From a virus: a stretch of 14,317 bases of DNA. This document shows, in pieces, positions 1 to 14,317 of the stretch (position 1 is its first letter; each line of letters starts with the position of its first letter). The position numbers were made by a program, and so were the translations under genes. The notes under the pieces are model-generated. The model saw only the letters and a list, made by a program, of their open reading frames with translations. It was not told the origin of the DNA and made no database searches. The stretch lies in UHGV virus genome UHGV-0064133; one strand, given 5' to 3'.

Positions 1-313
1 TTCCGTGTTCAAACGCGCTATCAAAGTCATCATCCATTTCCATCTCATCAGGCACAGATACCGGCGCTGGCGGGGCTGTGTAAAGTGGCATTACCTCAAT
101 ATTGAAGATATCCCCCTCGCTTGGACATGCCTCTGCGCTACCGTAAACCCAAGGGTGAACGACTCCGTTACGCTTGTTGATTAATCTGTGCGCCCACGCC
201 ACAGGCTCCGCTTCAATCCCCGCAAGCGCCATGCGTGCCAATGCAGATGCATCACCACACTGGACGTGATCGGTTTCAATGATGTGCTGTAATTGTTCTT
301 TGGTGAATGTCAT
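1..313 (-). CDS. hypothetical phage protein, N-terminal part only (ORF runs off the left edge)
   Basis: ATG at 313-311 on minus strand; frame checked by hand down to position 2 with no stop; 3-nt gap to the stop of the upstream 66-aa ORF; acidic stretch DEMEMDDDFD. No recognisable domain. Confidence 0.4.
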   Translation of the reverse strand, partial: MTFTKEQLQHIIETDHVQCGDASALARMALAGIEAEPVAWAHRLINKRNGVVHPWVYGSAEACPSEGDIFNIEVMPLYTAPPAPVSVPDEMEMDDDFDSAFEHG

Positions 314-316
314 GGG

Positions 317-517
317 TTAGTCCTCTGCCTGCACGATAATTTCCACATTGATACTCATCACGCCAGCATCAACGCTCATCTCCGTGGCATCTGCGTTAAT
401 CATGTATTCACAGACTACCAAAGCCAGCAACTTGAGTGATGCGCCTGTATCGCAGCCTGTTAGCTCGTTGACAAGGTCCACGACTTCTTGCATGTGATCG
501 CCCATTCTCATACTCAC
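317..517 (-). CDS. hypothetical small phage protein (66 aa)
   Basis: ORF in track; start overlaps the stop of the upstream gene (514-517), i.e. same operon with tight gene packing. No domain recognised. Confidence 0.45.
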   Translation of the reverse strand: MSMRMGDHMQEVVDLVNELTGCDTGASLKLLALVVCEYMINADATEMSVDAGVMSINVEIIVQAED

Positions 518-1017
518 TCCCCCTCTATCTGCAATTTGATGCCAGCGGCGGCGCAGGCATCTTTAAACTTCACCTCACATTCAAGGCGGCATGAGTTGTA
601 GATGGCTGCGAGGTCACTATTATTAAATTCCTCGTCAACGTATTTACCTGCTGTTGCGCGCTGCGGCAGCTTCACGGTGAGCGTTCTGGCATCAAGCGAG
701 GCGATGCGCATACTACCGTCAGCGATGACGCTCTCGTAATACTCGCGTTGCTCAGCAATCCGCTTCTCTCCGGCTTCCAGTTCATCCAGCAGCGCCAGCA
801 TTGTTTCTGGGCTAGCTGCAGCGATATATCTCAATATGTTTTCAGACTGTTTCACTCCCCCTGCGGCTTTATTCAGACAGTAGATAGCCTCTGCTCCGCC
901 TACTGTGATATATCCCCGCCCTGGGGCGCTGAGGTCGCTGGTGTAGACGTACTCCCAGTCATTTTGTCCTGCACGTTCAACCGCTTCACGTAATGCGCGT
1001 TTGTCGATGTTGCTCAT
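514..1017 (-). CDS. Ead/Ea22-like phage protein (tentative family assignment)
   Basis: 167-aa ORF; segment ILRYIAAASPETMLALLDELEAGEKRIAEQ resembles the conserved core I remember from lambdoid Ead/Ea22-like proteins; ATGA start/stop overlap with the upstream gene at 1014-1017. Confidence 0.5.
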   Translation of the reverse strand: MSNIDKRALREAVERAGQNDWEYVYTSDLSAPGRGYITVGGAEAIYCLNKAAGGVKQSENILRYIAAASPETMLALLDELEAGEKRIAEQREYYESVIADGSMRIASLDARTLTVKLPQRATAGKYVDEEFNNSDLAAIYNSCRLECEVKFKDACAAAGIKLQIEGE

Positions 1018-1529
1018 TGGGCGGCCTCCTTGCGAATCTGCTCCCTGAACAAGCGGGCTGAGACGATGATGTCTCTGATGCGTACTGATTTTTCGTCGAA
1101 CTGCTCACCACCGTTTTTAATATGCGCATCCAGTTCTGCACTGTGATGCCGAATGAAAGCGTTGAGGTCATGCGCCCGCACTTCAGCCAGGAAAGCGTCG
1201 GTGGCTGGGGTTTCGATTTCTGGCTTGGCATATACCGGCCAGCAATCAGTTCCATCGGAGTTTTTGTGTCCTGCCTCGTCATGAACATCAAGATATTCAC
1301 CGCATGGGAGCGGGTCTTCCCAGGTTGGTGGAATAGCGTGCCAGGATAGATATGCTTGAGGCTTATCAAACGCACCCTTCAGCCCCGCATTCTCCGCAGC
1401 CAACGCCAACTTCGCTTCTCGCTCTGTCTTAAGTTGCATCTCCAGATTATCAATTGTGATATCAGTCTGGCGGCCGTAGCGCTCTGACTCGATGAGCTTC
1501 TGCTCTAACTCTTCATAACTCGGTTTCAT
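1014..1529 (-). CDS. hypothetical phage protein with predicted coiled-coil N-terminus
   Basis: Track ORF 1014..1583 trimmed to the internal ATG at 1529-1527, which overlaps the TGA of the upstream gene (1528-1526); sequence EELEQKLIESE...LEMQLKTEREAKLALAAENAGLK looks coiled-coil. Function unknown. Confidence 0.5.
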   Translation of the reverse strand: MKPSYEELEQKLIESERYGRQTDITIDNLEMQLKTEREAKLALAAENAGLKGAFDKPQAYLSWHAIPPTWEDPLPCGEYLDVHDEAGHKNSDGTDCWPVYAKPEIETPATDAFLAEVRAHDLNAFIRHHSAELDAHIKNGGEQFDEKSVRIRDIIVSARLFREQIRKEAAQ

Positions 1530-1867
1530 GCTCTCACCCCATATACGCTTAAAATTCGCTTCATAGCCGCGCTGTTGCGGCACTCCTGGCAGATCACGTT
1601 TGCCTCTGTACGCTGCACCAGCTTCGAATTTCCCTTCGGCATAGCCGGGATTGTTTCTGGTGCGTATTTCATGCCGTAATCGGTCAGCCGATAAAGCCGC
1701 TGTCCGTGCTTGCCTTCGAACTCGATCAGGCCGTCTGCAAACAACGTACTTAACGGGCCGGAAATCTTTTTGGTGGTCATGCCGATCATCCTGGCAATGA
1801 AAGCACTATTCAGGCCCGGGTTATTACGCAGGGCTGCAAGAATCTGCCCACGAATTGTTATGGTCAT
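1526..1867 (-). CDS. hypothetical small DNA-binding protein (winged-helix-like)
   Basis: 113-aa ORF; N-terminal ILAALRNNPGLNSAFIARMIGMTTKKISGPLSTLFADGLIE resembles a winged-helix fold; start overlaps the stop of the DnaC-like gene at 1864-1867. Confidence 0.45.
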   Translation of the reverse strand: MTITIRGQILAALRNNPGLNSAFIARMIGMTTKKISGPLSTLFADGLIEFEGKHGQRLYRLTDYGMKYAPETIPAMPKGNSKLVQRTEANVICQECRNSAAMKRILSVYGVRA

Positions 1868-2718
1868 GCTGCCCCCTTAGAACGGTAAGAATCCCACGTG
1901 AATGACAGAGTGCACCCGCCTCCATCGCTCATGCGATCAAGAACGCGTTCGCCGATGAATGCAGCCAGTTCTTCCCGGGTCTGGTTGCTGATCAGGATGG
2001 TCGGCTTCATCCGCTCGTACCGGGTGTTGATGATTTCGAACATGATCAGCTTCTCGGCCTCGCTGCCGAACTGGACGCCAACCTCGTCGATGATCAAAAG
2101 GTCCGGAGTGGTGAAGTGCGCAATCACGTCGTTCTCGCTGCGCGTCGCAGTTTTCGACCACGTTGATTTGAACTCACGGGCAATCTTCAGCGCGGTGGTA
2201 AAAATTACCGGGCTCTGGTGTTTCTCGATGACATCACGGGCGATCGCCAGGGCAAGGTGGTTTTTACCGGTTCCCGGCTTGCCGCACATCACCAGACCAC
2301 CTCCCTGCTTCAGCCGCTCGGGCCACTTAGCGGCATACGCCTGACAAACCCGCAGCGCACGTTCTGACTCCTTGCCAACCGGCTGATAGTTTTCCAGCGT
2401 GCACGTCACAAAGCGCTCAGGGATTTCGAGCTGACGCAGCAGGCGATCGATGTTCTGCTGGCGAGTGCGGTCTTCCCAACGCTTTTTCTCGTCATACAGG
2501 AAGCTCAGCTCATCGCGAAGGCAGCCCGGACAACGAGTCGGCGGCGACGGCAGCTTGATTAGGCTGCTGGTAAGCACGCGTTTACGCTGTTCGTATTCGC
2601 CGTGTTTCTCGCAAAGCACCGTTTCGAAGACGGTCTCGCAGTTAGGGAGTTGCTCTGGCGGCCTGCCGAGAACTTCCAGCATTTTTTCGATAGCGTCGAT
2701 TTTTTCGAGCAGCTCCAT
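1864..2718 (-). CDS. DnaC-like replicative helicase loader (AAA+ ATPase, lambda P functional analogue)
   Basis: Walker A GKPGTGKNHLALAIA and Walker B LLIIDEVG; DnaC/IstB-type architecture. Start set at ATG 2718-2716 (RBS GAGGGA 6 nt upstream, 2 nt after the stop of the O-like gene) rather than the track start at 2736. Confidence 0.85.
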   Translation of the reverse strand: MELLEKIDAIEKMLEVLGRPPEQLPNCETVFETVLCEKHGEYEQRKRVLTSSLIKLPSPPTRCPGCLRDELSFLYDEKKRWEDRTRQQNIDRLLRQLEIPERFVTCTLENYQPVGKESERALRVCQAYAAKWPERLKQGGGLVMCGKPGTGKNHLALAIARDVIEKHQSPVIFTTALKIAREFKSTWSKTATRSENDVIAHFTTPDLLIIDEVGVQFGSEAEKLIMFEIINTRYERMKPTILISNQTREELAAFIGERVLDRMSDGGGCTLSFTWDSYRSKGAA

Positions 2719-2720
2719 AC

Positions 2721-3575
2721 TCAGTCCCTCGCCCATGACGGGATTTCAGTCTGGCCATAGTCCTTGCCAGCGAAGTTCTCGGATACGCGAGTCTGATTGC
2801 GGGCTGGCTGCTTGATGCCTTTCGGTTCAAACAATCCCTGCCAGCCGTTCGCAATGCTCTGGTTGATGATTTCTTCAGGCTGGTATCCGCTGCACTTGCA
2901 ACGCTCAAGCAGGTTGATGGCCTGGGTTACCGTCTGCTGAGACTTAATCGGTTTCTTCAGGTCGCGACGATAATCGACCCATGACTTCCAGACTGAAACT
3001 GACAGCCATTCAGGAAGGTCAACACCAGCCGGATCGAACGAAGCCGGTTTGGGGGATTTAGGGGGTTTATTAATATTGTCTTTATTGTCTTTTGTATGTT
3101 TGTCTTTTGTGTTTACCTTATTTGGGTAAGTGTCGTTACCTGATTCGGGTAAACATTCCTTACCTGATTCAGGTAAATTTACCTCTTTCAGGTAACGTTT
3201 ATTTTCATTACCTGTTTTTGGTAATTTCACCCATTCACTAACCGTTTTGTTAATGCCGACAGAACGCCCGATTTGGGTAAATACTCCACGCTTCACTAAC
3301 GAGCTTTTAGCAGCAGAGCATTTGTGCGGAAGAATGCCGGTGAGGGCAGATAACTGATCGTTACTAACCCAGTCAGCTTTTTTGTTGAAACCGTATGTTT
3401 TACGCATTACAGCCATGAAGACCAGCAACTGATGCTGAGACAATCCAGCCAGCATGACAGCCTCCAGAAGTTCATTGGCAATACGCGTATAGCCATCATC
3501 AAGATCTGCCACGCGCGGCTCCACGACCTGCAAATCAGGCCTGATTGGTGAGATATTGTTAATTGCTAAGTTCAT
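2721..3575 (-). CDS. phage replication initiator / replisome organiser (lambda O-like N-terminus, DnaT/DnaD-like C-terminus)
   Basis: Track ORF 2721..3659 trimmed to ATG at 3575-3573 (RBS GGGGAGG upstream). C-terminal [27 protein letters not shown]...[10 protein letters not shown] matches the primosomal DnaT-like domain common in phage O proteins; iteron array lies inside the gene, as in lambda O. Confidence 0.8.
3113..3224. repeat. origin of replication iterons: five copies of TTACC-N7-GGTAA inside the O-like gene, flanked by an AT-rich tract (3062-3112)
   Basis: Read directly: ttaccttatttgggtaa (3113), ttacctgattcgggtaa (3136), ttacctgattcaggtaa (3160), ttacctctttcaggtaa (3179), ttacctgtttttggtaa (3208); adjacent T-rich segment ttaatattgtctttattgtcttttgtatgtttgtcttttgtg. 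Same architecture as lambda ori inside gene O. Confidence 0.65.
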
Positions 3576-3753
3576 CAGCAGCCTCCCCGCCTTTCTTGAA
3601 GATGATTTCGACACAAAGCAGAATGCAGTTATCGCAGATAGCAACGCCTGGACCGGCAACTATGGTTTTCACGTCGCTATCGATATTGCTTCTGTCGCAG
3701 AAAGAGCATTTATGAGTTGCGTGCTGATTTGCCTTTTCGTTTATTACTGGCAT
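3559..3753 (-). CDS. small ClpX-type C4 zinc-finger protein (stand-alone ClpX N-terminal domain homologue)
   Basis: Sequence [38 protein letters not shown] aligns with the ClpX N-terminal zinc-binding domain ([36 protein letters not shown]). Start set at ATG 3753-3751 (RBS GGGAG 5 nt upstream); the track ORF starts at an upstream GTG (3780). Confidence 0.6.
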
Positions 3754-3838
3754 ACTTACTCCCGTTACTTGGCGTAACACAGTGTGATAAGGGCCTTTGA
3801 AGTGACCGCTTCAAGGGCTTTTTCTTTTCTGGTGCCTC

Positions 3839-4384
3839 TCACATGACCCCCAACATCGAAGTGACCATCGTCATCAGCGGGCCTACCTGCTCCGGCATGA
3901 GGCGGAACAGCGACGCTATACCCTCGCTTACCTCTTTCAGCTTCTGATGCTCTGGAGCGTCCAGCAGCACGGCCTGTTTAGCCTCGGCACACTCTTTCAT
4001 CGCAGAGGCGATCAGCGACATCGTGTCGTTCTGCGGCGCCAGACGGTTTCGGTACTCCAGCGGCAGGACCGACATGATTGCCGGGGCCAGCTGGCGAATG
4101 TTGTTGGCGGCGTATTCGGTATCGCCATCAATCCATCGAAACACTTTCTGCATCTGGCGGTGCGAGTCAGTCGGGATATCCAGACCGGTTCCGCCGGACG
4201 CCCGCCACTCTTCCACGATCAGCGCGGCGACAAATTCACGGCTTCGGCAATCAGCTGCCCAGGCGCGAACAGCAGCGCGGATCCCATCGATGTTTAACGC
4301 CGCGGAATCAGGCTCCCGGCGATTCTGGTAAATCATCGCCGTTGGCGAAAATTTGTTACCTTGTTGATACGCAAGTGAATGCAT
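3839..4384 (-). CDS. phage regulatory protein, CII(CP76)/YdaT-like
   Basis: 181-aa ORF directly downstream of the cro-like gene; RBS AAGGGAAAG; segment QKVFRWIDGDTEYAANNIRQLAPAIMSVLP resembles what I recall of Rac YdaT and the CP76 family. Assignment is from memory, not a search. Confidence 0.55.
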   Translation of the reverse strand: MHSLAYQQGNKFSPTAMIYQNRREPDSAALNIDGIRAAVRAWAADCRSREFVAALIVEEWRASGGTGLDIPTDSHRQMQKVFRWIDGDTEYAANNIRQLAPAIMSVLPLEYRNRLAPQNDTMSLIASAMKECAEAKQAVLLDAPEHQKLKEVSEGIASLFRLMPEQVGPLMTMVTSMLGVM

Positions 4385-4413: not shown

Positions 4414-4635
4414 TTAGGCGGCAAAGATACCTGGATATAGAACTTCGCGAGGAAGCCCCGTCACTTCTTCGTACTTACGCATTTTTGTTACTGGAAGGCT
4501 GCCACCTCGCTTTTTAAGCATATTGATGGCCTGTGGCGTTACGCCGACCTTTTCAGCAAGCACCTTTTGAGAGCCGCCCACTGCATTAATGGCTTTCTCA
4601 AGCGGGGTGCTTGCGTTGGATTCTTTGTTGATCAT
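4414..4635 (-). CDS. Cro/YdaS-like helix-turn-helix regulator
   Basis: 73-aa ORF divergent from the cI-like gene; HTH-like GSQKVLAEKVGVTPQAINMLKK; RBS GGAG 7 nt upstream of the ATG. Confidence 0.7.
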   Translation of the reverse strand: MINKESNASTPLEKAINAVGGSQKVLAEKVGVTPQAINMLKKRGGSLPVTKMRKYEEVTGLPREVLYPGIFAA

Positions 4636-4752
4636 GTTTTGCTCCGCTCATGTGTAATCAACACCATGTTAATTCATGATGTGGATTAAATCAACATTAT
4701 GGTGATGGAAAAAATCCACATGTTGTTTACCATGCATGGAGCGGAGGGTTTT
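4636..4752. promoter_or_regulatory. OR-like divergent operator/promoter region between cro-like and cI-like genes
   Basis: 117-bp AT-rich intergenic region with four copies of the 9-mer AATC[A/C]ACA (4657, 4689, 4714, and inverted at 4679-4687 as atgtggatt); candidate leftward promoter -35 TTGATT / -10 TAACAT on the minus strand (approx. 4694-4666). Confidence 0.55.
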
Positions 4753-5463
4753 ATGAGTAGCATTTCTGAAAGAATTAAATTTTTACTGGCAAGGGAAGGC
4801 TTGAAGCAGCGGGATTTGGCTGAGGCTTTGTCGACTAGCCCACAGACCGTCAACAACTGGATAAAAAGAGACGCGTTAAGTCGTGAGGCGGCGCAACAAA
4901 TATCTGAAAAATTCGGTTATTCTCTTGACTGGTTATTAAATGGAGAGGGTTCTCCAAAGAAGGATCTGGAGAGCAACATCCCGCCAGAGTCTGAGTGGGG
5001 AGTTGTTGATGCATGGGATAAAGACACCCCGCTTCCTGTTGATGAGGTTGAAGTGCCATTTCTTAAGGATATTGAATTTGCGTGTGGTGATGGTCGAGTT
5101 CAGTGCGAAGACCACAATGGATTTAAGCTGAGATTCTCCAAGGCAACGCTCAGAAGAGTGGGTGCAAATAGTGATGGTTCTGGAGTGCTTTGCTTTCCCG
5201 CTTCTGGTGACAGCATGGAGCCCGTTATTCCTGACGGCGCAACGGTAGCAGTCGATACAGGCAACAAGCGGATTATTGACGGCGAACTCTATGCTATTAA
5301 CCAGGGCGATTTAAAGCGCATAAAGCAGCTTTATCGAAAGCCTGGTGGGAAGCTATTAATACGAAGCATCAATCGCGATTATGACGATGAAGAGGCTGAT
5401 GAGGCAGATGTCGAGATAATCGGTTTTGTGTTCTGGTACTCGGTATTGCGATATCGCCGATAA
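4753..5463 (+). CDS. CI-like prophage repressor, XRE-type HTH plus S24 (LexA-like) autopeptidase domain
   Basis: N-terminal HTH (LKQRDLAEALSTSPQTVNNWIKR); C-terminal S24 motifs GDSMEP (Ser nucleophile) and ELYAINQGDLKRIKQL (Lys). Start set at ATG 4753 (RBS GGAGGG 4 nt upstream) rather than the track start at 4699. Confidence 0.85.
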   Translation: MSSISERIKFLLAREGLKQRDLAEALSTSPQTVNNWIKRDALSREAAQQISEKFGYSLDWLLNGEGSPKKDLESNIPPESEWGVVDAWDKDTPLPVDEVEVPFLKDIEFACGDGRVQCEDHNGFKLRFSKATLRRVGANSDGSGVLCFPASGDSMEPVIPDGATVAVDTGNKRIIDGELYAINQGDLKRIKQLYRKPGGKLLIRSINRDYDDEEADEADVEIIGFVFWYSVLRYRR

Positions 5464-5468
5464 TTTTA

Positions 5469-5581
5469 GTGGCCTGAAGAGACGTTTGGGTGATAAGAGA
5501 ATATCTGATAGTAGGCGTGGTTACTTTGCTCTCGGTTGTTGCGATCGTGCTTATGGTGGCCTGATGAGACGTTTGGGTGAT
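5469..5581. repeat. pair of 26-bp direct repeats (one mismatch) between the repressor gene and the KilA-N gene
   Basis: gtggcctgaagagacgtttgggtgat at 5469-5494 and gtggcctgatgagacgtttgggtgat at 5556-5581, 87 bp start to start. Confidence 0.6.
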
Positions 5582-5612: not shown

Positions 5613-6374
5613 ATGACACAGTTTCAACTTGCATTAATCGCCAGAGAAGTTGATGGAGAAGTCATCCATCTTCGCACCAAAGACGGTTACATCAATGCCA
5701 CCGCAATGTGCAAGTCTGCTGGGAAGCTACTTGCTGACTATACACGACTAAAAACAACGCAAGATTTTTTTGATGAATTATCCCGCGATATGGGGATTCC
5801 CATATCGGAATTAATTCAATCATTTAAAGGCGGAAGAGCAGAGAATCAAGGGACTTGGGTTCATCCAGACATCGCAATTAACTTAGCTCAGTGGCTATCT
5901 CCAAAATTTGCAGTGCAAGTATCGAGATGGGTGCGTGAGTGGATGTCAGGCGAAAGAGCGCCTGCCGAACTCCCTATCCACCTTAAGCGGTATATGACAA
6001 ACCGAGGCAGGGTTCCTCATACGCACTTTTCTATGCTTAATGAACTGACGTTTAACCTGGTTGCGCCACTTGAGCAGGCAGGATATACGCTGCCAGAAAA
6101 AATGGTCCCTGATATTTCAGAAGGTAGGGTTTTCTCGCAATGGCTTCGTGAAAACCGGGGTGTTGAGCCGAAGACGTTCCCAACATATAACCATGAGTAC
6201 CCAGATGGCCGGACATTCCCGGTACGTCTATACCCAAACGAATATCTTGCAGATTTCAAACAACACTTCAACGAAGTGTGGCTGCCTCAGTACGCTCCTA
6301 AATATTTTGCAGAACGAGACCAAAGGGCATTGACGTTGATTGAGAAAATCATGTTGCCTGACCTTGATTCCTAA
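5613..6374 (+). CDS. KilA-N domain protein with uncharacterised C-terminal domain (immunity-region cargo)
   Basis: N-terminal ~110 aa carry the KilA-N/APSES-like signature (YINATAMCKSAGK ... GTWVHPDIAINLAQWLSPKFAVQVSRWV); C-terminal ~140 aa (FPTYNHEYPDGRTFPVRLYPNEYLADFKQHF...) matches nothing I recognise. RBS AGGA; followed by a terminator hairpin. Confidence 0.7.
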   Translation: MTQFQLALIAREVDGEVIHLRTKDGYINATAMCKSAGKLLADYTRLKTTQDFFDELSRDMGIPISELIQSFKGGRAENQGTWVHPDIAINLAQWLSPKFAVQVSRWVREWMSGERAPAELPIHLKRYMTNRGRVPHTHFSMLNELTFNLVAPLEQAGYTLPEKMVPDISEGRVFSQWLRENRGVEPKTFPTYNHEYPDGRTFPVRLYPNEYLADFKQHFNEVWLPQYAPKYFAERDQRALTLIEKIMLPDLDS

Positions 6375-6382: not shown

Positions 6383-6405
6383 CCCGGCCACCAAGCCGGG
6401 GTTTT
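6383..6405 (+). terminator. putative intrinsic terminator between convergent genes
   Basis: Stem cccggc (6383-6388) / gccggg (6395-6400), loop caccaa, followed by gtttta; lies 9 nt after the KilA-N stop and abuts the 3' end of the convergent small ORF. Confidence 0.5.
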
Positions 6406-6601
6406 ACTGCCCTTTCCGCACTATCTCAGCTGCATCCCTGTTCACACCCTTACCTATCACGTTTCCCGTTTCCTTCCGGTACCGTTCCAGCTTGTCGATG
6501 ATGTTTTGCTGGGTCATAGGTAAATCTGCCAGTGACAACTCCATGACCGCCCGCCCCATGGCGTGAACCATCATGTTCACTCTTTCTTCATCCAAGCCCA
6601 T
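6404..6601 (-). CDS. hypothetical small protein (65 aa) convergent with the KilA-N gene
   Basis: Strong RBS AAGGAG 6 nt upstream of ATG 6601-6599 on the minus strand; hydrophilic sequence MGLDEERVNMMVHAMGRAVMELSLADLPMTQQNIIDKLERYRKETG...; sits just inside the OL-like operator cluster. No family recognised. Confidence 0.5.
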   Translation of the reverse strand: MGLDEERVNMMVHAMGRAVMELSLADLPMTQQNIIDKLERYRKETGNVIGKGVNRDAAEIVRKGQ

Positions 6602-7851: not shown

Positions 7852-8010
7852 ATGAAAAAAGAATGTGGTTATTGCCACAAGCCTGTTGAAGAAGGCGCAG
7901 AAGTAAAGAGCACCTTGCTCTATCTCAACGGTTCGCAACTGGCACAGAAAGAAAAAGAATATTGCTCTAAGCAATGCGCTGAATACGACCAGATGGCGCA
8001 CGAAAGTTAA
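7852..8010 (+). CDS. small zinc-ribbon protein (52 aa), not in the ORF track; YdaE-like by position and Cys pattern
   Basis: Hand translation: MKKECGYCHKPVEEGAEVKSTLLYLNGSQLAQKEKEYCSKQCAEYDQMAHES; CxxC...CxxxC pattern; RBS AAGGACAGG 4 nt upstream of the ATG. Confidence 0.5.
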   Translation: MKKECGYCHKPVEEGAEVKSTLLYLNGSQLAQKEKEYCSKQCAEYDQMAHES

Positions 8011-8095: not shown

Positions 8096-8383
8096 ATGGA
8101 AATCGTAAAAATCGAAATGAACCTGAAAGCAGTGAATAAAGAAGTGGCTGCATTCAACTGCGAGAAGAAAGTATCAGGCGTTATTCACTCAACTACAAAC
8201 GGTGAAACAACAGTCATTCTCGACGGTGGCTATGTGCTTGGCAAGTTTGATTGCCCGCACTGCGCCATTGAGGAGATCAGCTTGCTGGCACTCAAAATCA
8301 GCGATAGCGATTACGCCGGCTGGGGAACCTACCGTACATACAAGCAAGATTTTATGAATGAGGCGATCGTAGCCGTCAGTTAA
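8096..8383 (+). CDS. hypothetical protein (95 aa), immediately upstream of recE-like gene
   Basis: RBS GGAG upstream of the ATG; contains a CPHC motif; occupies the racC position of Rac-like prophages. No family assignment. Confidence 0.5.
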   Translation: MEIVKIEMNLKAVNKEVAAFNCEKKVSGVIHSTTNGETTVILDGGYVLGKFDCPHCAIEEISLLALKISDSDYAGWGTYRTYKQDFMNEAIVAVS

Positions 8384-8523
8384 GCGAAAGCCCACCGAAG
8401 TGGGCCCGCCATGTCCGGCCTCACCGACCAAAGTTACACCGGAAACAACATTAAAACCAAAGTTAACCCAATGGGCGCTATCAATGGTCCGGGGATTCTA
8501 ACACCCAAAAAAGAGGATCTCAC

Positions 8524-11433
8524 ATGGAATTTTTCCATCTGATAAAAGCCAGTCAGAAGTCTGGCAAGAAAGATGCAGTGATTTGGTTCACTGCGAAAAG
8601 TGTAGCGCGCGCCAATCTCCAACTCGATGTGGCACTGGAAGAAGCCGGAATTGAAGAAACTGGCCGCGGTAAAGATTATGCCAAACCAATCCGCACCGAT
8701 TTCCCGGTATATGACGACCTGCCGGAAGAAGGCGCAGTGGATTACACCTGGTGCGAACGCTACGAACTGCAGAACGATGACCGCACCTGGCTGCCAAAAG
8801 TCACAGCTGAAAACTCTGACGAGAAAACGGCTCAGACCGTTGATAGTCACATAACTACTGAGTCAACGCTGCCAGAAACCGCTGGCATCACGCTGGACGA
8901 ACACGACGACGACTCAACCCTCTACCCGGTAGTGCAGATGCCGTTTCGTAAGCAACTGCTTTCCCAGTTCACCGCCGACGAACTGCGCCACCACGTAACC
9001 CACGAAGAGTACGAAGCTATCGGCGCGCTGGAGATGGACACTGATAACAGTTACGTCCAGAACTTGCTGTTAGCTGCTGAGAACTGCCCGGAAGTGAAGG
9101 GTTACGACACCAAAGACCTGTGGCGCTACACCGATGCCATTCGCAAAGTGTTCAGCCAGGACAAGCGTCACGAACTCGCGCTGGTACTCCGTTTCACCAG
9201 AATGTGGGCGGCGACTGATTACATTGACCGTGGCATCCTGGCGCGTGAATGGGCCGCCGGTAATCGCATCAGTAGTGTGCAGCGTACTGATTCCGGCACT
9301 AATGCCGACGGCGGTTACGTCACTGACCGTGGACCTGACGCACACCACACACTGGACACTCTCGATTTAGAGATTGCGTGTGCCCTTCTGCCTATGGACT
9401 TCAACCACTTCGAGATCCCGGGCAGCATTCTTCGTCGCGCTAAAGAAATCGTGACCAAAAAAGAAGAACCATGGAAATCATGGAGCAACATCCTGCGCAA
9501 TCAGCCAGGCGTTCTGGGTGTTAACCGCACGGCTATTTTTAACCTGGTACGTATCGCACCGGAAAATATTCATTTAACTCCTGTCGCTCACCTGGAATTT
9601 GTTAACCAGACCATGACAGCCGCGTTCAATTCCGCGGTCGAGTTATTGCCGTTGCATGAGGCTGAACCCGCAGCACAGGAAATTCCCCAACCTGAAGGTA
9701 AGGAGTCTCCGCGCAAATCCTTCTGCACTCACGAAGAGAACCTGCAACGCGTGCGTGAAGAAGGAGCACGCCGCCGCGCAGAGGAAGCGGCAGCACAACC
9801 GCAGAAAGTCGAACAAGAACTGGTTAAAAATGTCGGCAACGGAATATTCGACGTTACGGCTTTGCTGCAGAACTCAGCAACTCATGGCACGAAAAAGGCT
9901 ACGGAGACCACCAGCAATGTGCAGGTTCAAGAAACTGTCAGTGATGAAAAACAAGCTGGTGATGAAGTACAGCCAGGCGAAAGCAGTCTGGAGTCTGGTG
10001 AAGAGTCAGATACCAGCCAGAAGGACGATGTAGACCAGAATACGGATTCTGTCGCCAAAAATAGCGATTCTGTAAGCCAAACCGAACCAGTTGCAGCACA
10101 AACCGAGCCAGAAGCGCAATCTGACGAACCAGCTGTTGTTTATCCCGCTTATTTCGAGCCAGGCCGCTATGAAGGGCTGCCAAACGAGGTTTACCACGCC
10201 GCCAACGGCATCAGCTCAACCCAGGTGAAAGATGCGCGCGTTTCGCTGATGTACTTCAATGCGCGCCACGTAGAGAAAACCATCGTCAAAGAGCGCTCAG
10301 CGGTGCTGGACATGGGCAACTTGGTGCATGCGCTGGCGTTGCAGCCTGAACTACTGGACGCAGAATTCAGCGTTGAACCGGTGATCCCTGAAGGCGCATT
10401 CACAACGGCCGCGACCCTGCGCGCCTTTATCGATGAGCACAATGCCAGCCTGCCGGCGCTGCTGTCTGCCGACGACATCAAGGTGTTACTGGAAGAGTAC
10501 AACGCCACCCTGCCGCCGCAGGTTCCGCTTGGCGCTAACCTGGAAGAAACGGCACAGAACTATATGGCGCTGCCAGCTGACTTCCAGCGTATTGATGGTG
10601 ACCAGAAGCAGACGGCGACGGCAATGAAGGCATGCATTAAAGAGTACAACGCCACCCTGCCGCCGCCGGTTAAAACCAGCGGCAGCCGTGACGCGCTGCT
10701 GGAGCAGTTGGCAATCATCAACCCTGACCTTGTGGCTCAGGAAGCACAGAAACCGGCACCACTGAAAGTGTCCGGTACCAAAGCAGACATGATCCAGGCC
10801 GTGAAGGCAGTCAAACCAGATGCCGTATTTGCCGACGAACTGCTGGATGCCTGGCGCGATAACCCGGAAGGAAAAGTGCTGGTCACCCGCCAGCAGCTGA
10901 GCACCGCGCTGAATATTCAAAAAGCGCTTCTGGCACACCCGACCGCCGGCATGCTGCTGACCCACCCTAGCCGAGCCGTTGAGGTGAGCTACTTTGGTTT
11001 TGACGAGGAGACGGGCTTGGAAGTTCGTGTGCGCCCTGACCTTGAGATCGACCTGGATGGCGTGCGTATAGGTGCAGACCTGAAAACCATCAGCATGTGG
11101 AATGTTAAGCAGGAAAGCCTGCGCGCCAGGCTACACCGGGAAATTATTGAACGTGATTATCACCTGAGCGCGGCTATGTACTGCGAAACCGCAGCGCTGG
11201 ATCAGTTCTTCTGGATTTTCGTCAACAAAGACGAGAACTACCACTGGATCGCCATCATCGAGGCATCCGCTGAACTACTGGAGCTGGGTATGCTCGAGTA
11301 CCGCAAAGCGATGCGCAATATCGCAACCGGATTCGACACAGGTGAATGGCCAGCGCCAATCACTGCTGACTACACCGACGAACTGAACGACTTCGACCTG
11401 CGCCGCCTTGAAGCGCTGCGTACTCAGGCATAA
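8524..11433 (+). CDS. recE: RecE-like exodeoxyribonuclease VIII (large 5'-3' dsDNA exonuclease with C-terminal PD-(D/E)XK domain)
   Basis: N-terminal DAVIWFTAKS...FPVYDDLPEEGAVDYTWCERYEL and DYIDRGILAREWAAGNRISSVQRTDSGTNADGGYVTDRG match what I recall of E. coli RecE; C-terminal RPDLEIDLDGVRIGADLKT fits the PD-(D/E)XK nuclease motif; RBS AAGAGGA. Confidence 0.8.
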   Translation: MEFFHLIKASQKSGKKDAVIWFTAKSVARANLQLDVALEEAGIEETGRGKDYAKPIRTDFPVYDDLPEEGAVDYTWCERYELQNDDRTWLPKVTAENSDEKTAQTVDSHITTESTLPETAGITLDEHDDDSTLYPVVQMPFRKQLLSQFTADELRHHVTHEEYEAIGALEMDTDNSYVQNLLLAAENCPEVKGYDTKDLWRYTDAIRKVFSQDKRHELALVLRFTRMWAATDYIDRGILAREWAAGNRISSVQRTDSGTNADGGYVTDRGPDAHHTLDTLDLEIACALLPMDFNHFEIPGSILRRAKEIVTKKEEPWKSWSNILRNQPGVLGVNRTAIFNLVRIAPENIHLTPVAHLEFVNQTMTAAFNSAVELLPLHEAEPAAQEIPQPEGKESPRKSFCTHEENLQRVREEGARRRAEEAAAQPQKVEQELVKNVGNGIFDVTALLQNSATHGTKKATETTSNVQVQETVSDEKQAGDEVQPGESSLESGEESDTSQKDDVDQNTDSVAKNSDSVSQTEPVAAQTEPEAQSDEPAVVYPAYFEPGRYEGLPNEVYHAANGISSTQVKDARVSLMYFNARHVEKTIVKERSAVLDMGNLVHALALQPELLDAEFSVEPVIPEGAFTTAATLRAFIDEHNASLPALLSADDIKVLLEEYNATLPPQVPLGANLEETAQNYMALPADFQRIDGDQKQTATAMKACIKEYNATLPPPVKTSGSRDALLEQLAIINPDLVAQEAQKPAPLKVSGTKADMIQAVKAVKPDAVFADELLDAWRDNPEGKVLVTRQQLSTALNIQKALLAHPTAGMLLTHPSRAVEVSYFGFDEETGLEVRVRPDLEIDLDGVRIGADLKTISMWNVKQESLRARLHREIIERDYHLSAAMYCETAALDQFFWIFVNKDENYHWIAIIEASAELLELGMLEYRKAMRNIATGFDTGEWPAPITADYTDELNDFDLRRLEALRTQA
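10435..10666 (+). repeat. in-frame internal repeats within the recE-like gene
   Basis: Exact 25-bp repeat gagtacaacgccaccctgccgccgc at 10495-10519 and 10642-10666 (147 bp apart, 49 codons), plus a degenerate copy gagcacaatgccagcctgccggcgc at 10435-10459; peptide-level repeats EHNASLPA / EYNATLPP / EYNATLPP. Confidence 0.65.
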
Positions 11434-11438: not shown

Positions 11439-12557
11439 ATGATGATGGAAAACACGAATATCGTAACCGCTGAGCAGCAGACTCCAAACACGATCTCAGC
11501 CAGCAATGCCATTTTCAACGTGCAGGCTTTAACCCAGCTTCAGTCTGTCGCCGGGTTGATGGCACAGGCAGCCGTAACGGTGCCTGAGCACCTCCGCGGC
11601 AATCCGGCAGACTGCATGGCCATCATCATGCAGGCGATGCAGTGGGGTATGAACCCTTACGCCGTGGCGCAAAAGACGCACCTGGTTAACGGTGTCCTGG
11701 GATACGAAGCGCAACTGGTTAATGCGGTGATCTCCAGCTCAAACGCCATCGTTGGCCGCTTTCACTATGAGTACGAGGGCGACTGGTCGAAATGTGCCAG
11801 CAGCCGCGAGATAACCGTTAAAAAGCCTGCGAAAGGTGGCGGGACGTACGACAAGAAAGAAATGGTACGCGGTTGGGAAAGTGCTGATGAACAAGGACTG
11901 TCGGTACGGGTAGGTGCCGTTATTCGCGGTGAAAGTGATATCACCTGGGGAGAGCCTGTTTTCCTCTCCAGCGTAATCACACGTAATTCTCCACTTTGGG
12001 TATCAAACCCGAAACAGCAGATCGCTTATCTGGCACTCAAATACTGGGCGCGCCTGTATTGCCCTGCAGTTGTTCTTGGTGTGTACACCCCTGATGAGAT
12101 TGAACAGCGCACAGAAAAAGAGATCAACCCAACGCCGCAACGCGTTAGCCTGGCTGATATCTCAGGTGACACCGTCACAACCACGCAAAGCGCACAGGAA
12201 TCGTCGGTAAATGTCGACTCTCTTGCCGATGATTTCCGCGAACGCATCGAATCTGCTCAGGACGTGGATAGCGCCAAATCGCTGCGTGCCGACATTGAAA
12301 CGGCGAAAGCTACGCTGGGATCCGCACTATTCACCGAGCTGAAAAACAAAGCCGTAAAGCGTTATTACCTAGTGGATGCACGCAACAAGGTTGAGGAGGC
12401 TATTAAATCCCTGCCCCAGCCCGACGAGCCGCATGCAGCCGAACGGTTCGCTGAAGCCGAGCGCATGCTTGCATCTTCAAAGCGTCACTTAGGCGATGAA
12501 CTGCACGATCAATTCAGCATCACCCTGGCGGATATGAAACCGGAATACGTGGCCTGA
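11439..12557 (+). CDS. RecT/Redbeta(Bet)-family single-strand annealing protein (probable)
   Basis: Directly downstream of the recE-like gene (5-nt gap); segment NPADCMAIIMQAMQWGMNPYAVAQKTHLVNGVLGYEAQ resembles the Redbeta/RecT core (compare lambda Bet DAQFIALLIVANQYGLNPWTKEIYAFP); three consecutive ATGs at the start, true start may be 11442 or 11445. Confidence 0.6.
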   Translation: MMMENTNIVTAEQQTPNTISASNAIFNVQALTQLQSVAGLMAQAAVTVPEHLRGNPADCMAIIMQAMQWGMNPYAVAQKTHLVNGVLGYEAQLVNAVISSSNAIVGRFHYEYEGDWSKCASSREITVKKPAKGGGTYDKKEMVRGWESADEQGLSVRVGAVIRGESDITWGEPVFLSSVITRNSPLWVSNPKQQIAYLALKYWARLYCPAVVLGVYTPDEIEQRTEKEINPTPQRVSLADISGDTVTTTQSAQESSVNVDSLADDFRERIESAQDVDSAKSLRADIETAKATLGSALFTELKNKAVKRYYLVDARNKVEEAIKSLPQPDEPHAAERFAEAERMLASSKRHLGDELHDQFSITLADMKPEYVA

Positions 12558-12595
12558 CGAGACCGGGAGGGGTAACCCTCCCTCAAGGAGATTAT

Positions 12596-12838
12596 ATGCG
12601 ACTGATCAATCGAGGAAGTAAGCAATCACCTTTAGCTCGCCAAGCATGCGACATCGCGCTGGCAGCTCACTTGCAAACATATGGCGACTATGGGCGAAGC
12701 AAGATGAAAGAGACTTATACGGTGAAGGTTGAAGGCGTGAAAGTCTGGGATGAGCGTTTGAACCGAAAGGCTACCTACGTGGCCACAGCGATGACCGGCA
12801 TGCGCCGTCTCCGCTCCCTGCCCGGGCAGGTTGGTTGA
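12596..12838 (+). CDS. hypothetical protein (80 aa)
   Basis: Strong RBS AAGGAG 5 nt upstream of the ATG; preceded by a GC hairpin (12565-12582); no family recognised. Confidence 0.5.
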   Translation: MRLINRGSKQSPLARQACDIALAAHLQTYGDYGRSKMKETYTVKVEGVKVWDERLNRKATYVATAMTGMRRLRSLPGQVG

Positions 12839-12879
12839 AAAAGATTTTGAATGGCCCGAACGGGCAACTGGAGAGAGCT

Positions 12880-13077
12880 ATGGATGATATTTTGGTAACG
12901 TCAGACCTGACCAGTCGCTACAAAATTTCACGCAAAACCCTTTGGTCATGGCAAAGTGCAGACACAATGCCTCGGGGCTTCGTATGCCCGTTCCCACCCC
13001 CTGACTGGCCCGGCAACCCTAACCGCTGGCGCTCTGAGTCAATCAAAGAGTGGGAGGATAAAAAGAAGATAAATTAA
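12880..13077 (+). CDS. AlpA/excisionase-like small DNA-binding protein
   Basis: [24 protein letters not shown] resembles the AlpA/Xis-type HTH N-terminus; start set at ATG 12880 (RBS GGAGAG upstream) rather than the track start at 12835; adjacent to the integrase. Confidence 0.6.
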
Positions 13078-14267
13078 CTGAAGGGCTCTCCGATGATCTC
13101 TTCAAGATGGCTCTGCCAAACGCGGAGCCAGTGTTTCTGATCATCGATATAGTCATGAAGGTTGTAATGCGCCATAACCCCCACCATCTGATGCCCGAGC
13201 AGCTTTTCAATTACGTGCGGCGGGCAACCTAACTCAGAGAGATTTGTGGCTATCGTCCGCCTCATATCATGAAGCGACCACTCTGCCATACCTGTTCCAT
13301 TCCAAATAGAACGGGCGTAATTGGATGCCACAGGTGAATGAACGGGCGAATCTTTGATCCCGCCATCAATTTTACGTTGTGAAGTCACCAGGTGATTGGT
13401 GTTTATTTTCTTGAGGTGATTTCTGACCAGGTTAACGGCGGCGTCTGAGAGTCCCCTTCTAATATGTACCCGAGTTTTATAACTGCCCGCAGGCACGACC
13501 CACTCATTATCATCCAATCGAAACCATGATCTCTCACTAAGTCGAATCTCAGCCGTACGGCATCCGGTAAGCATAATAAATTTCACCAGGAAAACGGACT
13601 CTATCGACATATGGCTTTTCAACCACTGATAGATTTTGCGCAGATCGTCATCGTCCATCCTGCGAGTTCTCTTTTTAGGCTTTTGCCCGACATCAGATGG
13701 CAGTAATCCCTCGAGTGGGTTTGAGGCGATCACACTTCTGTTAACGCAGAACCTAAACGCCCGTTTGCACAGCGAAAGCATGTAATGAGCCATCACCCTG
13801 CTTTCTATAGAATCGAAGACGTTGATCCAGTGCATTTTCGCTGTGTTATCGACTTTGACATTCTTCATCGGTTCGGCGATATGTTTCTCAAACACCTGGC
13901 GATAGTAATCGACTTTAACTAGCCCGTTAGCGATACAGTGCCTTTCAATCCAGTAATTGAACGCTTCGGCAACGGACATCGCTTCCTGTCGGGTCTGCTT
14001 ATCCAGCTTCACCTGCTCTCGCGGATCCAGTCCCTCAGTTAACCAGTTTCTGAATTGTTGGCGACGCTCTCTTGCCTGGGTGATACTCATTGCAGGATAA
14101 TCACCAACATTGAGTTTTACCGCTTTACCGGCCCAGCGATACCGATAGAAAAATGATATTTTTCCGGCCTGGCTGATTCTGGCGTTGAGCCCGTGCGAAT
14201 CAGAAATAATCTCGATATCATCTCTTTTCTTGCCGAGCGCCTTCCTGAGCTTTGTGTCGGTGATCAT
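13074..14267 (-). CDS. int: tyrosine recombinase / phage integrase (P4-type, N-terminal arm-binding domain)
   Basis: N-terminus [13 protein letters not shown]...[24 protein letters not shown] matches the P4-like integrase arm-binding domain; C-terminal catalytic region HDMRRT...[18 protein letters not shown] with R, H-x-x-R and Y. Start chosen at ATG 14267 by analogy with IntS/IntA N-termini; the track ORF extends to 14312. Confidence 0.9.
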
Positions 14268-14317
14268 TGAATGGGTACACATTTTTGTTTTTGGGTACAC
14301 AAAAGTGTACACAAAGT

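Follow-up and report, generated by a model that had tools for sequence, protein, structure and literature searches.

The 14,317-nucleotide stretch of viral DNA analysed here (the window) carries integrase, recombination, repressor and replication genes in an order that recalls the Rac prophage of E. coli K-12. This raises the question of whether it is a Rac relative in which a few slots have been replaced, and which of its genes are cargo. We conclude, with a probability of roughly 0.9, that the window is the early region (int to nin) of a phi80-group lambdoid prophage, assembled as a mosaic of modules known from sequenced phages. It combines a phi80-type immunity region and integrase with a recET arm like that of HK225. 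Its closest relatives are phi80 and HK225, and Rac is only a remote comparator. Set in this mosaic backbone are two accessory genes, one of the BstA family and one encoding a 64-aa copy of the zinc-binding domain (ZBD) with which the host protease ClpX docks its substrates. All in all, this mosaic prophage is unremarkable, apart from one modest lead.

Relationship to sequenced phages and prophages

Eighteen of the 20 genes are 86–100% identical to genes of phi80 (NC_021190 / JX871397), of HK225 (NC_019717) or of a prophage that sits beside kch, the phi80 attachment site, in E. coli. Only the KilA-N (BstA-family) gene and the ClpX zinc-finger gene, the two cargo genes, lack counterparts in phi80, HK225 and the E. 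coli prophage nearest to the window. Among single phages HK225 comes closest, matching 61% of the window at 96% identity; the best of the E. coli prophages matches 69% of it, at 97.6% identity. Coverage stays below 80% for every single sequenced phage and every complete E. coli genome, so a phage with precisely this combination of modules has not been described. Each base from 1495 to the end of the window lies inside a near-identical segment of one or other of the prophages compared; bases 1–1494 have patchy matches only.

The host, probably E. coli or a close enterobacterium, and the integration site are judged from relatives, as the window ends with the integrase start codon, short of the attachment site and host flank. 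Those relatives that share its recE adjoin kch, the phi80 attachment site, and on a metagenome scaffold with the same zinc finger–initiator module the flanking DNA is 100% identical to this kch junction of E. coli.

The two closest phages differ from the window in distinct segments. phi80 has exo/bet-type recombination genes with gamL/agt in place of recET, gene 40A rather than BstA between cI and pL, and a gp15/gp14 (O/P-type) replication module that lacks the ClpX zinc-finger gene. HK225 has kil, ydaE, the 95-aa gene, recE, recT, the DUF4060 gene, xis, int and the CII-like, Cro and Ren-like genes as in the window (89–100% identity), but its slot between cI and pL holds HK97 gp48/gp49-like genes, its N region differs, and its replication module is of the O/P type (‘replication protein 14’). 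BstA and the ClpX zinc-finger gene are both absent from HK225, and its cI is 89% identical to that of the window.

Integration genes and the left operon

13074..14312, minus strand: tyrosine integrase (Pfam Arm-DNA-bind_3 and Phage_integrase), convergent with xis
12880..13077, plus strand: excisionase (phi80 Xis, 65 aa; phrog_1553, E 1.4e-33, residues 16–79); the ORF reaches back to 12835
12596..12838, plus strand: DUF4060 protein (80 aa; Pfam PF13269, E 8e-31; 88–95% identity in phi80 and HK225)
11439..12557, plus strand: RecT single-strand annealing protein, HK225/Gifsy type (372 aa; Pfam RecT, E 2.5e-36)
8524..11433, plus strand: RecE exonuclease VIII (969 aa; Pfam Exonuc_VIII, E 9e-22, and DUF3799/PDDEXK)
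8385..8482, minus strand: isrB-like Hfq-binding small RNA (Rfam RF01386, matched over the whole model at 38.2 bits, gathering score 35, E 6e-4)
8096..8383, plus strand: 95-aa protein, Gifsy-1 STM2631-like (phrog_2434, E 1.8e-47; 99% identical to HK225 gp35)
7849..8010, plus strand: YdaE-like zinc-binding protein (53 aa; 42% identity to Rac YdaE, E 1e-10; 98% to HK225 gp36)
7612..7818, plus strand: Kil cell-division inhibitor (68 aa; 100% identical to HK225 gp37 ‘Kil’; 34% identity to Rac KilR, E 6e-11)

The site-specific recombination module (int, xis and the DUF4060 gene) derives from phi80. The integrase has 100% protein identity to both phi80 and HK225 Int, Xis is 99% identical to that of phi80, and the phi80 int-xis record X04051 is 99.9% identical at the DNA level. 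The integrase had been described as an inverted, P4-type substitution. It does lie on the strand opposite xis and resembles P4 Int (23% identity, E 2e-11), but this is the normal phi80 arrangement, in which int is annotated opposite xis with its own promoter. Here too, int is transcribed convergently with xis, from a dedicated promoter.

The left operon (kil, ydaE, the 95-aa gene, recE and recT) is 89–100% identical to that of HK225 and comes from HK225/Gifsy-type phages. RecE is 98% identical to an E. coli prophage gene, 89% to HK225 and 28% to Rac RecE. The annealing protein was correctly set apart from its Rac counterpart: both belong to RecT PF03837, and BLASTP finds no match between them. 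It is nonetheless no replacement, being 100% identical to HK225 gp33. Since the integrase and RecT are fully identical to phi80/HK225 proteins, they are normal backbone rather than substitution events.

The immunity region

7454..7476, plus strand: terminator tL1A
7159..7455, plus strand: N antiterminator (98 aa; 100% identical to phi80 N; phrog_25091, E 7e-62)
6807..6871, plus strand: nutL boxA and core (phi80 match, 0 mismatches)
6657..6742, plus strand: OL operators (0 mismatches to phi80) and pL (1 mismatch in a 29-base segment)
4753..5463, plus strand: CI repressor, phi80 immunity (236 aa from ATG 4753; Pfam Peptidase_S24, E 1.7e-19, and Phage_CI_repr); the ORF reaches back to 4699
4656..4731, unstranded: OR region with three phi80 CI operators, pR and pRM (operators and pRM segment 0 mismatches)
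4414..4635, minus strand: Cro analogue, phi80 gene 30 (73 aa; Pfam HTH_3 and YdaS_toxin)
3839..4384, minus strand: CII-like activator with YdaT domain (181 aa; Pfam YdaT_toxin, E 2e-27)
3764..3823, plus strand: M3 RNA, the oop-like antisense RNA of phi80 (58 of 60 bases identical to the annotated RNA)

cI, cro, N, OL, OR, pL, pRM, nutL, tL1A and the oop-like M3 RNA together make up the immunity module of phi80. All six phi80 CI operators, pRM, nutL boxA and core, and tL1A are exact in the window; pL and M3 RNA, which contains a terminator-like hairpin at 3789–3822, are nearly so. CI is 97% identical to phi80 cI, and the Cro analogue is 99% identical to phi80 gp30 and 100% to its HK225 counterpart. 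Because the module is phi80's own, the prophage would be expected to have phi80 immunity. The CII-like activator is closest to HK225 (99% to its ‘CII-like’ gene), with only 64% identity to phi80 cII and 30–35% to Rac YdaT.

Replication module and nin-region genes

2721..3575, minus strand: lambda-O-like initiator (284 aa from ATG 3575; Pfam Phage_rep_O, E 1.7e-33); the longest ORF starts at 3659
1864..2736, minus strand: DnaC/IstB-like AAA+ helicase loader (290 aa; Pfam IstB_IS21, E 2.5e-17, and Bac_DnaA, E 9e-9)
1526..1867, minus strand: Ren-like winged-helix protein (113 aa; phrog_142 ‘Ren-like exclusion protein’, E 2.6e-27; 91% identical to HK225 gp51)
1014..1583, minus strand: 189-aa protein (phrog_492, E 1.8e-21; no Pfam match)
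514..1017, minus strand: Ead/Ea22-like protein (167 aa), a nin-region accessory gene (Pfam PF13935, E 4e-15; its PHROG matches are families of unknown function)

Other prophages of E. coli and Enterobacter have replication modules of this kind, pairing a lambda-O-like initiator with a DnaC-like loader. Both genes match the E. coli VREC0761 prophage, with 92% identity for the initiator and 100% for the loader, which shares 28% with Rac YdaV. A GGGGAGG Shine-Dalgarno sequence lies 7 nt upstream of the initiator ATG at 3575, and the protein starts unlike relatives that lack the zinc-finger gene, which begin MANTAEVINF. The 189-aa protein has 74% identity over half its length to a VREC0761 prophage gene.

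Comparison with Rac

The original prediction described a Rac-like gene order with substituted slots. The named genes are all present in the order given, and functional families follow the same course in Rac (int, xis, recT, recE, ydaE, kil, repressor, the cro-like YdaS, the CII-like YdaT, initiator, DnaC-like loader), but the likeness is at the level of protein families only. Alignment with Rac gives eight collinear protein pairs (int, recE, ydaE, kilR, ydaS, ydaT, the ydaU C-terminus and ydaV; 24–42% identity), and blastn gives no nucleotide match to Rac of K-12 at E ≤ 1e-3.

Descent from a Rac-lineage prophage, with only the integrase, annealing protein, sieB/ydaFG and pre-initiator slots replaced, is effectively refuted. 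Eight homologous pairs in Rac order, with recognisable kil-ydaE-recE-recT and ydaS-ydaT-initiator-loader blocks, speak for it. Set against these are the absence of nucleotide similarity, the near-identity of most genes to the phi80 and HK225 group, and regulatory sites that match phi80 base for base. At 24–42% identity among shared genes, every gene differs from Rac, not four slots alone. Further differences were missing from the earlier list. The repressor is an S24-peptidase CI, which RacR is not; the N antiterminator gene is absent from Rac; and the initiator N-domain is Phage_rep_O instead of the DUF1376 of YdaU. Rac rcbA/ralR/ralA, racC, sieB and ydaFG have no counterparts in the window, where the DUF4060 gene and the 95-aa gene occupy the rcbA/ralR and racC positions. 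The integrases also differ, Rac IntR having Arm-DNA-bind_2 and integrating at ttcA. The resemblance to Rac is thus one of architecture common to recET-type lambdoid phages, not of descent.

The idea of a conserved backbone with variable cargo slots was sound, although Rac was the wrong frame of reference. Measured against the nearest relatives, two of the four slots singled out do hold true cargo: the KilA-N gene, which lies with the small ORF between repressor and pL, at the supposed sieB/ydaFG substitution, and the ClpX zinc-finger gene directly before the Phage_rep_O initiator. As for the suggestion that substituted slots harbour novel functions, the integrase and RecT drop out and the KilA-N gene belongs to the already characterised BstA family (PMC8585504), leaving only the ClpX zinc-finger gene functionally unexplored.

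A BstA-family gene in a hypervariable slot

5613..6374, plus strand: BstA-family abortive-infection protein (253 aa) with KilA-N (Pfam, E 8e-27) and BstA_C domains
5464..5494 and 5551..5581, plus strand: two 31-nt direct repeats between cI and the KilA-N gene, a recurrent module junction
6404..6601, minus strand: 65-aa conserved small ORF bordering the cargo slot (phrog_3975, E 7e-35)

By sequence, we assign the KilA-N gene to the published BstA abortive-infection family. Its product matches phrog_6287 ‘BstA’ (E 2e-82) and PADLOC BstA (E 1.6e-20), and shares 29% identity over the C-domain with BTP1 BstA (E 7e-15). Homologue loci have a precomputed BstA_C domain and lie directly after an S24 repressor in eight of eight cases. 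The function and placement of BstA were published for the Salmonella prophage BTP1 (Owen et al. 2021, PMC8585504). There, as in the window, a two-domain protein is encoded directly downstream of cI, the gene order is cro / cI / bstA / small reverse ORF / N, and bstA is followed by its own Rho-independent terminator (6383–6400 in the window); both proteins fall in the same PHROG and PADLOC families. They differ in length (253 aa against 307 aa in BTP1) and their N-terminal domains give no BLASTP alignment, that of the window being a clear Pfam KilA-N. Neither the BTP1 aba sequence nor its CCCGCC terminal repeats were found in the stretch preceding the window bstA start codon. In the lysogen, cI and this gene are probably transcribed together, up to the terminator that follows the latter. 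Going by its homologues, the protein is predicted to act as an anti-phage defence that blocks the DNA replication of other phages and so aborts their infections.

The slot between cI and N/pL is a known hypervariable one, with at least nine different cargos among relatives. A border ORF of 65–69 aa occupies the same spot beside these differing cargos, and that of the window is 97% identical in phi80 and an E. coli prophage. The other edge falls at the repeats, where similarity to HK225 stops at 5489 and that to phi80 at 5580, and the BstA cassette found in other prophages begins at 5468. The repeat region (5464..5581) gave no significant RNA fold.

A stand-alone ClpX zinc-binding domain

3559..3753, minus strand: stand-alone ClpX ZBD protein (64 aa; Pfam zf-C4_ClpX, E 1e-11, above the curated cutoff)

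The ORF spans 3559–3780 and its real start is probably ATG 3753, preceded by a GGGAG Shine-Dalgarno sequence. It overlaps the initiator start codon by 17 nt, and the two genes are translationally coupled. The protein matches the ClpX ZBD structure 1ovx by sequence (E 2.5e-7), and its AF2 model (pLDDT 72) superposes on 2ds5/2ds6 at 0.7–1.0 Å over 39–40 residues. It has the C4 zinc site and treble-clef fold of the ClpX ZBD, with 44–46% identity over the domain. In the close phage homologues, all four zinc-ligand cysteines are invariant, and so are the residues corresponding to ClpX F16 and I46; in ClpX, these two hydrophobic-patch residues bind lambda O, SspB and RssB (PMC7804408). No match in complete E. 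coli genomes covers 80% or more of the protein.

A short ORF (64 aa) at a mosaic junction might have arisen by chance in the cII–O intergenic region, and in one Klebsiella phage record it is unannotated, an opposite-strand ORF being called instead. The odds of this are negligible given the above-cutoff Pfam match, the good Shine-Dalgarno and ATG, and conservation of frame, four Cys and position in 80 viral contigs (43–100% identity). The exact protein is also called in 74 blocks of an assembly collection. In IMG/VR viral contigs, an initiator-sized gene lies directly downstream of 79 of 80 homologues, and of 60 distinct cases, 58 have a gene for a DnaC-like, lambda-P or DnaB protein as the next one along.

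Our preferred guess is that the protein serves as a ClpX N-domain decoy. Lacking the AAA+ module, it cannot be an unfoldase. Its target would instead be the recognition that depends on the ClpX N-domain, which it would affect either as a decoy or by pairing with that domain, and it could thereby alter the turnover of the initiator or other ClpXP substrates in lytic growth. Since initiators downstream of the homologues include ones unrelated to lambda O, protecting a lambda-O-type degron cannot be the whole story. The missing MANTAEVINF-type, lambda-O-like start of the linked initiator also counts against a decoy.

In a less probable alternative, the protein would belong to the phage's replication-initiation complex as a zinc-ribbon subunit with a structural or regulatory role, and might help load the helicase or bind the origin; it would have no connection with ClpX beyond the shared treble-clef fold. 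Translational coupling to the initiator favours it, as do the loss of the lambda-O-like N-terminus from the linked RepO and the placement of the gene before initiators of at least four unrelated families, with a DnaC-like, lambda-P or DnaB gene next in every case; a generic replication role fits such variety better than protection of one degron. Yet the likeness to the ClpX ZBD goes beyond fold, in identity and in a sub-ångström to 1 Å superposition, and the F16/I46 equivalents are retained. Very similar initiator–loader modules work without the ZBD protein in E. coli prophages, so it is not an obligatory subunit.

The candidate decoy also departs from the ClpX ZBD in several details. It has a two-residue insertion after the first CxxC, Ala at the Y34 equivalent, and a phage-specific ‘THKCSFC’ motif and acidic tail that ClpX lacks, and unlike ClpX its gene sits in a phage replication operon.

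Gene content and layout of the window

Six-frame ORFs combined with Pfam and PHROG scans of the window identify 20 credible genes; a tRNA search of the same stretch found none. The pR operon runs right to left on the minus strand, from the Cro analogue through an Ea22-like protein, and the left operon lies past pL on the plus strand.

Principal features of the window (coordinates, strand, description)
4414–4635, minus, Cro analogue (pR operon)
3839–4384, minus, CII-like YdaT-domain protein (pR operon)
3559–3753, minus, ClpX zinc-finger protein, 64 aa (pR operon)
2721–3575, minus, Phage_rep_O initiator, after the zinc-finger gene
1864–2736, minus, IstB/DnaC-like loader, after the initiator
Distal end of the pR operon, minus, Ren-like winged-helix protein, then a 189-aa protein and the Ea22-like protein
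4753–5463, plus, S24-peptidase CI repressor
5613–6374, plus, KilA-N protein
Past pL, plus, left operon: 98-aa protein, Kil, YdaE-like protein, 95-aa protein, RecE (969 aa), RecT (372 aa), DUF4060 protein, Xis
13074–14312, minus, integrase, convergent

The practical value of the window lies in annotation: CII analogue for the ‘YdaT toxin’ gene, phi80 N for the 98-aa gene and BstA defence gene for the KilA-N gene. The left operon also has two smaller features. A full-length match to the model of the Hfq-binding small RNA isrB (Rfam RF01386; 38.2 bits, gathering score 35) lies antisense at 8385–8482 (minus strand), in the gap between the 95-aa Gifsy-1 STM2631-like gene and recE. RecE itself contains an internal duplication, seen as reciprocal 32-nt cross-matches at 10493–10524 and 10640–10671, which corresponds to a repeated peptide, (E/K)EYNATLPP, in the linker joining its N- and C-terminal domains.

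Affinity to phi80 and HK225

Judged by its sequence, the window is a lambdoid prophage whose immunity region and integrase are those of phi80, whose recET arm is of the HK225 type and whose replication module is of the DnaC type. Among phage genomes, Megablast matched HK225, with 61% of the window covered at 96%, as well as mEp237 and phi80, and an old phi80 int-xis record is 99.9% identical. Gene by gene, identity to phi80 is 100% for Int and N, 99% for Xis and Cro, and 97% for cI, while Kil, the YdaE-like protein, the 95-aa protein, RecE, RecT, the CII-like protein and the Ren-like protein are 89–100% identical to those of HK225. The loader and initiator are 100% and 92% identical, respectively, to those of a prophage of E. 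coli VREC0761. The phi80 recombination (exo/rec/gamL) and replication (15/14) modules are absent, with no phi80 match at 7608–12601 or left of 3748; HK225-type recET and the DnaC-type replication module fill these stretches.

The regulatory sites annotated in phi80 are likewise retained. All six CI operators (in OR and OL), pRM, the nutL boxA and core, and tL1A occur in the window with 0 mismatches. A single base of 29 differs in pL, and 58 of the 60 bases of the oop-like M3 RNA agree. From these sites and the repressor, the prophage should be expected to show phi80 immunity. A simple promoter scan was dropped; it returned fewer sites than expected by chance and missed annotated phi80 promoters.

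In a search of 5,426 complete E. coli genomes, no more than 69% of the window (at 97.6%) is covered by the best prophages, and no genome covers 80% or more. The best-matching prophages adjoin kch, which is the phi80 attachment region (phi80 attB, yciI/kch); the window stops 5 bases past the int start, and relatives with an identical int also adjoin kch. From base 1495 on, each base falls within a near-identical segment of some fetched prophage, and the only stretches without a counterpart in phi80, HK225 and the closest E. coli prophage are 3523–3747 and 5581–6402. As a whole, the window belongs to a common kind of mosaic prophage from the phi80/HK225 group, in which well-known lambdoid modules have been recombined once more. 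Its least conserved stretch is 1–1494 (the Ea22-like gene, the 189-aa gene and bases 1–513), for which the fetched relatives give no more than short, scattered matches.

Comparison with Rac

The original prediction read the window as syntenic with the Rac prophage of E. coli K-12, with four substituted modules. This synteny holds for protein families and not for a shared backbone. Blastn of the window against Rac (MG1655 1411001–1427000; word size 11, E ≤ 1e-3) gave zero matches, and BLASTP gave eight collinear protein pairs at 24–42% identity: IntR (24%, E = 8e-4), RecE (28%), YdaE (42%), KilR (34%), YdaS (33%, E = 1e-3), YdaT (35%, E = 1e-10), the C-terminal half of YdaU (41%) and YdaV (28%). 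The order of the kilR-ydaE-recE-recT block is the same as in Rac.

Rac is nonetheless the wrong reference frame, as the closest relatives are phi80 and HK225 and two of the four proposed substitutions are their backbone. The integrase was called inverted and P4-type, and both descriptions are accurate: it carries PF13356 (Arm-DNA-bind_3, E = 1.5e-18) and PF00589 (E = 8.5e-17), shares Arm-DNA-bind_3 and 23% identity over 289 aa (E = 2e-11) with P4 Int, and is convergent with xis, whereas IntR of Rac carries Arm-DNA-bind_2 and a Rac-type prophage would be expected to have int on the strand of xis-recET. However, this is the normal phi80 arrangement rather than a substitution, since the phi80 record NC_021190 annotates int opposite to the xis strand with its own promoter, the same orientation as in the window. 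Similarly, the annealing protein does belong to a different branch (Pfam RecT matches both proteins, but BLASTP finds no similarity between the window RecT and Rac RecT), yet it too is part of the phi80/HK225-group backbone.

The other two items, a KilA-N gene and small ORF in place of sieB/ydaFG and a ClpX zinc-finger gene ahead of the initiator, are factually right. The former is a known defence gene in a known hotspot, and the 65-aa small ORF has no similarity to Rac sieB, ydaF or ydaG; the latter, like the KilA-N gene, lacks a counterpart in phi80, HK225 and the closest E. coli prophage. Further differences from Rac had been overlooked. The Rac repressor is RacR, whereas the window encodes an S24 CI without similarity to RacR beside its YdaS-like and YdaT-like genes; Rac has no N gene, whereas the window carries one; the Rac initiator has a DUF1376 N-domain in place of Phage_rep_O; and the rcbA/ralR and racC positions are taken in the window by the DUF4060 gene and the 95-aa gene.

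A ClpX zinc-binding-domain protein linked to phage initiators

The small protein encoded before the initiator consists of a ClpX zinc-binding domain (ZBD) and little else. It is an uncharacterised but widespread accessory gene coupled to the initiator, and the window's sole lead worth experiment. A GGGAG Shine-Dalgarno sequence precedes the ATG of its ORF at 3753, the exact end of phi80 homology and the position of the phi80 gene 15 start, and the stop of the ORF overlaps the initiator ATG (3575) by 17 nt. The Pfam zf-C4_ClpX model scores 45 bits (cutoff 27, E = 1e-11), and the ClpX N-domain structure 1ovx is matched by sequence (E = 2.5e-7). Cys16, Cys19, Cys40 and Cys43 are invariant in 30 homologues, and F18 and I50, equivalent to ClpX F16 and I46, are invariant in eight close phage homologues. 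An AlphaFold model from four near-identical ZBD homologues reached a pLDDT of 39 and was discarded; the alignment of 30 homologues gave a usable AF2 model (mean pLDDT 71.8; 76–89 over residues 11–50), for which the top PDB matches are the ClpX ZBD structures 2ds5, 2ds6 and 2ds7 (rmsd 0.7–1.6 Å, target TM 0.78–0.86), with 2ds5 and 2ds6 superposing at 0.7–1.0 Å. We considered whether the protein could be a ClpX unfoldase and ruled this out, since it has no AAA+ module and, at 64 aa, ends 11 residues after the domain.

No match in the complete E. coli genomes covers 80% or more of the stretch that holds the gene, even with 11-base words, and among the E. coli matches listed coverage is limited to the flanking 3748–3850. 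The assembly collection has the exact protein in 74 blocks, with Enterobacter hormaechei and E. cloacae as named sources; it is also found in Pseudocitrobacter, and on a scaffold from a metagenome with a flank that matches the E. coli int-kch junction at 100% identity. In a scan of genome contigs for relatives of the ZBD, true clpX genes of actinobacteria dominated the output, and one useful locus emerged, in Pseudocitrobacter vendiensis, so the species distribution rests on source names and the one E. coli-flanked scaffold. Taken together, ZBD-only and tandem-ZBD proteins are abundant, with 2,962 representatives at E ≤ 1e-3. Among the highest-scoring relatives of the 64-aa protein, many (representatives P0004–P0012 and others) are 100–300 aa long and contain two to four tandem ClpX-ZBD repeats and no ATPase domain. 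We know of no described function for such tandem proteins, and the literature searched contained no relevant paper on phage-encoded ClpX zinc-finger proteins.

The ZBD protein shows a tight, repeated link to phage replication initiators. All loci with close homologues share the order cII (of either type), ZBD gene, RepO (284 aa) and DnaC-like loader, and in two Klebsiella phages a 47%-identical ZBD gene occupies the same place before an unrelated 302-aa initiator and DnaC. More broadly, an initiator-sized gene begins within a few dozen bases of the ZBD gene's stop in 79 of 80 IMG/VR contigs (homologues at 43–100% identity), although these contigs come from related lambdoid phages and the counts are not independent events. 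The 68 distinct downstream proteins include 20 with Phage_rep_O, five with HTH_36, five with DnaD_N and one with DnaT, the remainder having no Pfam match; the gene after the initiator encodes a DnaC-like protein (47), lambda P (6) or DnaB (5) in 58 of 60 distinct cases. The link spans several unrelated initiator families all the same.

Possible function of the ZBD protein

The lambda initiator O is a textbook ZBD-dependent substrate of ClpXP. The ClpX ZBD is required if lambda O is to be degraded, and F16 and I46 mark the hydrophobic patch to which lambda O binds, as do the adaptors SspB and RssB (PMC7804408). The phage protein may be a mimic of this substrate- and adaptor-docking domain, which would compete for N-domain ligands or pair with ClpX N-domains. 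N-domain-dependent ClpXP proteolysis would then be shut off when the replication operon is expressed, and the initiator, possibly along with other phage or host ClpXP substrates, would be stabilised. If so, phages would control a host protease using a copy of its own docking domain.

The linked initiators themselves temper this proposal. In a comparison of window 3540–3575 and loci L001, L015, L016, L028, L029 and L031, same-family initiators in prophages without the ZBD gene begin MANTAEVINF, close to the N-terminal ClpX-recognition sequence of lambda O, MTNTAKILNFGR (MTNTAKILNF) (PMC7804408). The ZBD-linked initiators have a different N-terminus, and the homology break falls at window 3522, within initiator codons 13–18. 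Either the insertion that brought the ZBD gene also removed the degron, or the target of the ZBD protein is something other than this degron. Because the ZBD-linked initiators lack MANTAEVINF, and because they are so varied, we place the probability that the protein acts as a decoy against ClpXP, made from a copy of the domain by which the protease recognises its substrates and conserved as an accessory of lambdoid replication modules, at only about 0.3. A role in the initiation complex that does not involve ClpX is a serious rival of roughly equal probability.

The BstA-family gene

By domain content and position, the KilA-N gene is a further member of the known BstA family in its usual place. 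The protein gives a full-length match (E = 2e-82) to phrog_6287 (‘BstA abortive infection system’), with Pfam KilA-N spanning residues 13–112 and the PADLOC BstA model matching residues 120–237 (E = 1.6e-20); its C-terminal domain is 29% identical to BstA of the Salmonella prophage BTP1 (residues 133–251, E = 7e-15). The exact protein is annotated as KilA-N plus BstA_C in the assembly collection and listed in 1,559 blocks, and this allele is present in only 22 of the 5,426 complete E. coli genomes. BstA proteins of Salmonella, E. coli and Klebsiella stop phages from replicating their DNA and in this way abort the infection (Owen et al., PMC8585504). Their genes are characteristically downstream of cI, and the cI-N region is a known mosaic hotspot (PMC8585504). 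Here bstA starts 149 nt past the cI stop and is followed by a terminator at 6383–6400; BTP1 and the window share one gene order (cro, cI, bstA, small reverse ORF, N). In all eight loci listed for the identical protein, the gene lies directly downstream of an S24 repressor, whose type varies, and is followed by a small reverse ORF. BstA-like genes are not restricted to the repressor slot, since an Enterobacter-type prophage with the same ZBD-RepO module (locus L023, 14483–15409) has a further BstA_C-domain gene, of 308 aa, which lies not next to cI but in the nin region.

Anti-BstA DNA (aba) elements are homologue-specific (PMC8585504), so that sequence alone is indecisive on their presence; inspected by eye, the sequence ahead of the bstA start codon shows neither a BTP1-like aba nor CCCGCC terminal repeats. 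The cI-bstA intergenic RNA folds no better than shuffled controls (z = 0.46), and we therefore do not propose an RNA element there.

The cargo slot between cI and pL

The cI-to-N slot holds at least nine different cargos among the fetched relatives, for example phi80 40A, HK97 gp48/49-like genes, a YafO toxin pair, DUF7946/7947, a 467-aa protein and an AAA_31 protein, and the window again shows it to be a swap site for defence genes. Directly after the cI stop codon are two 31-nt direct repeats (5464–5494 and 5551–5581; 90% identical, 87 nt apart). HK225 homology ends inside the first repeat, phi80 homology ends inside the second, and in other prophages the BstA cassette starts at 5468. The repeats therefore fall at recombination junctions of the slot. 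As candidate aba elements they were set aside, since phi80, which lacks bstA, carries them too.

The pL-side border is marked by the 65-aa ORF (6404–6601, minus strand; phrog_3975), which has no similarity to the small ORF beside BTP1 bstA. It is conserved regardless of cargo, being found beside BstA, phi80 40A, the YafO pair and the AAA_31 gene. Its transcription runs towards cI, and the phi80 RefSeq record does not annotate it.
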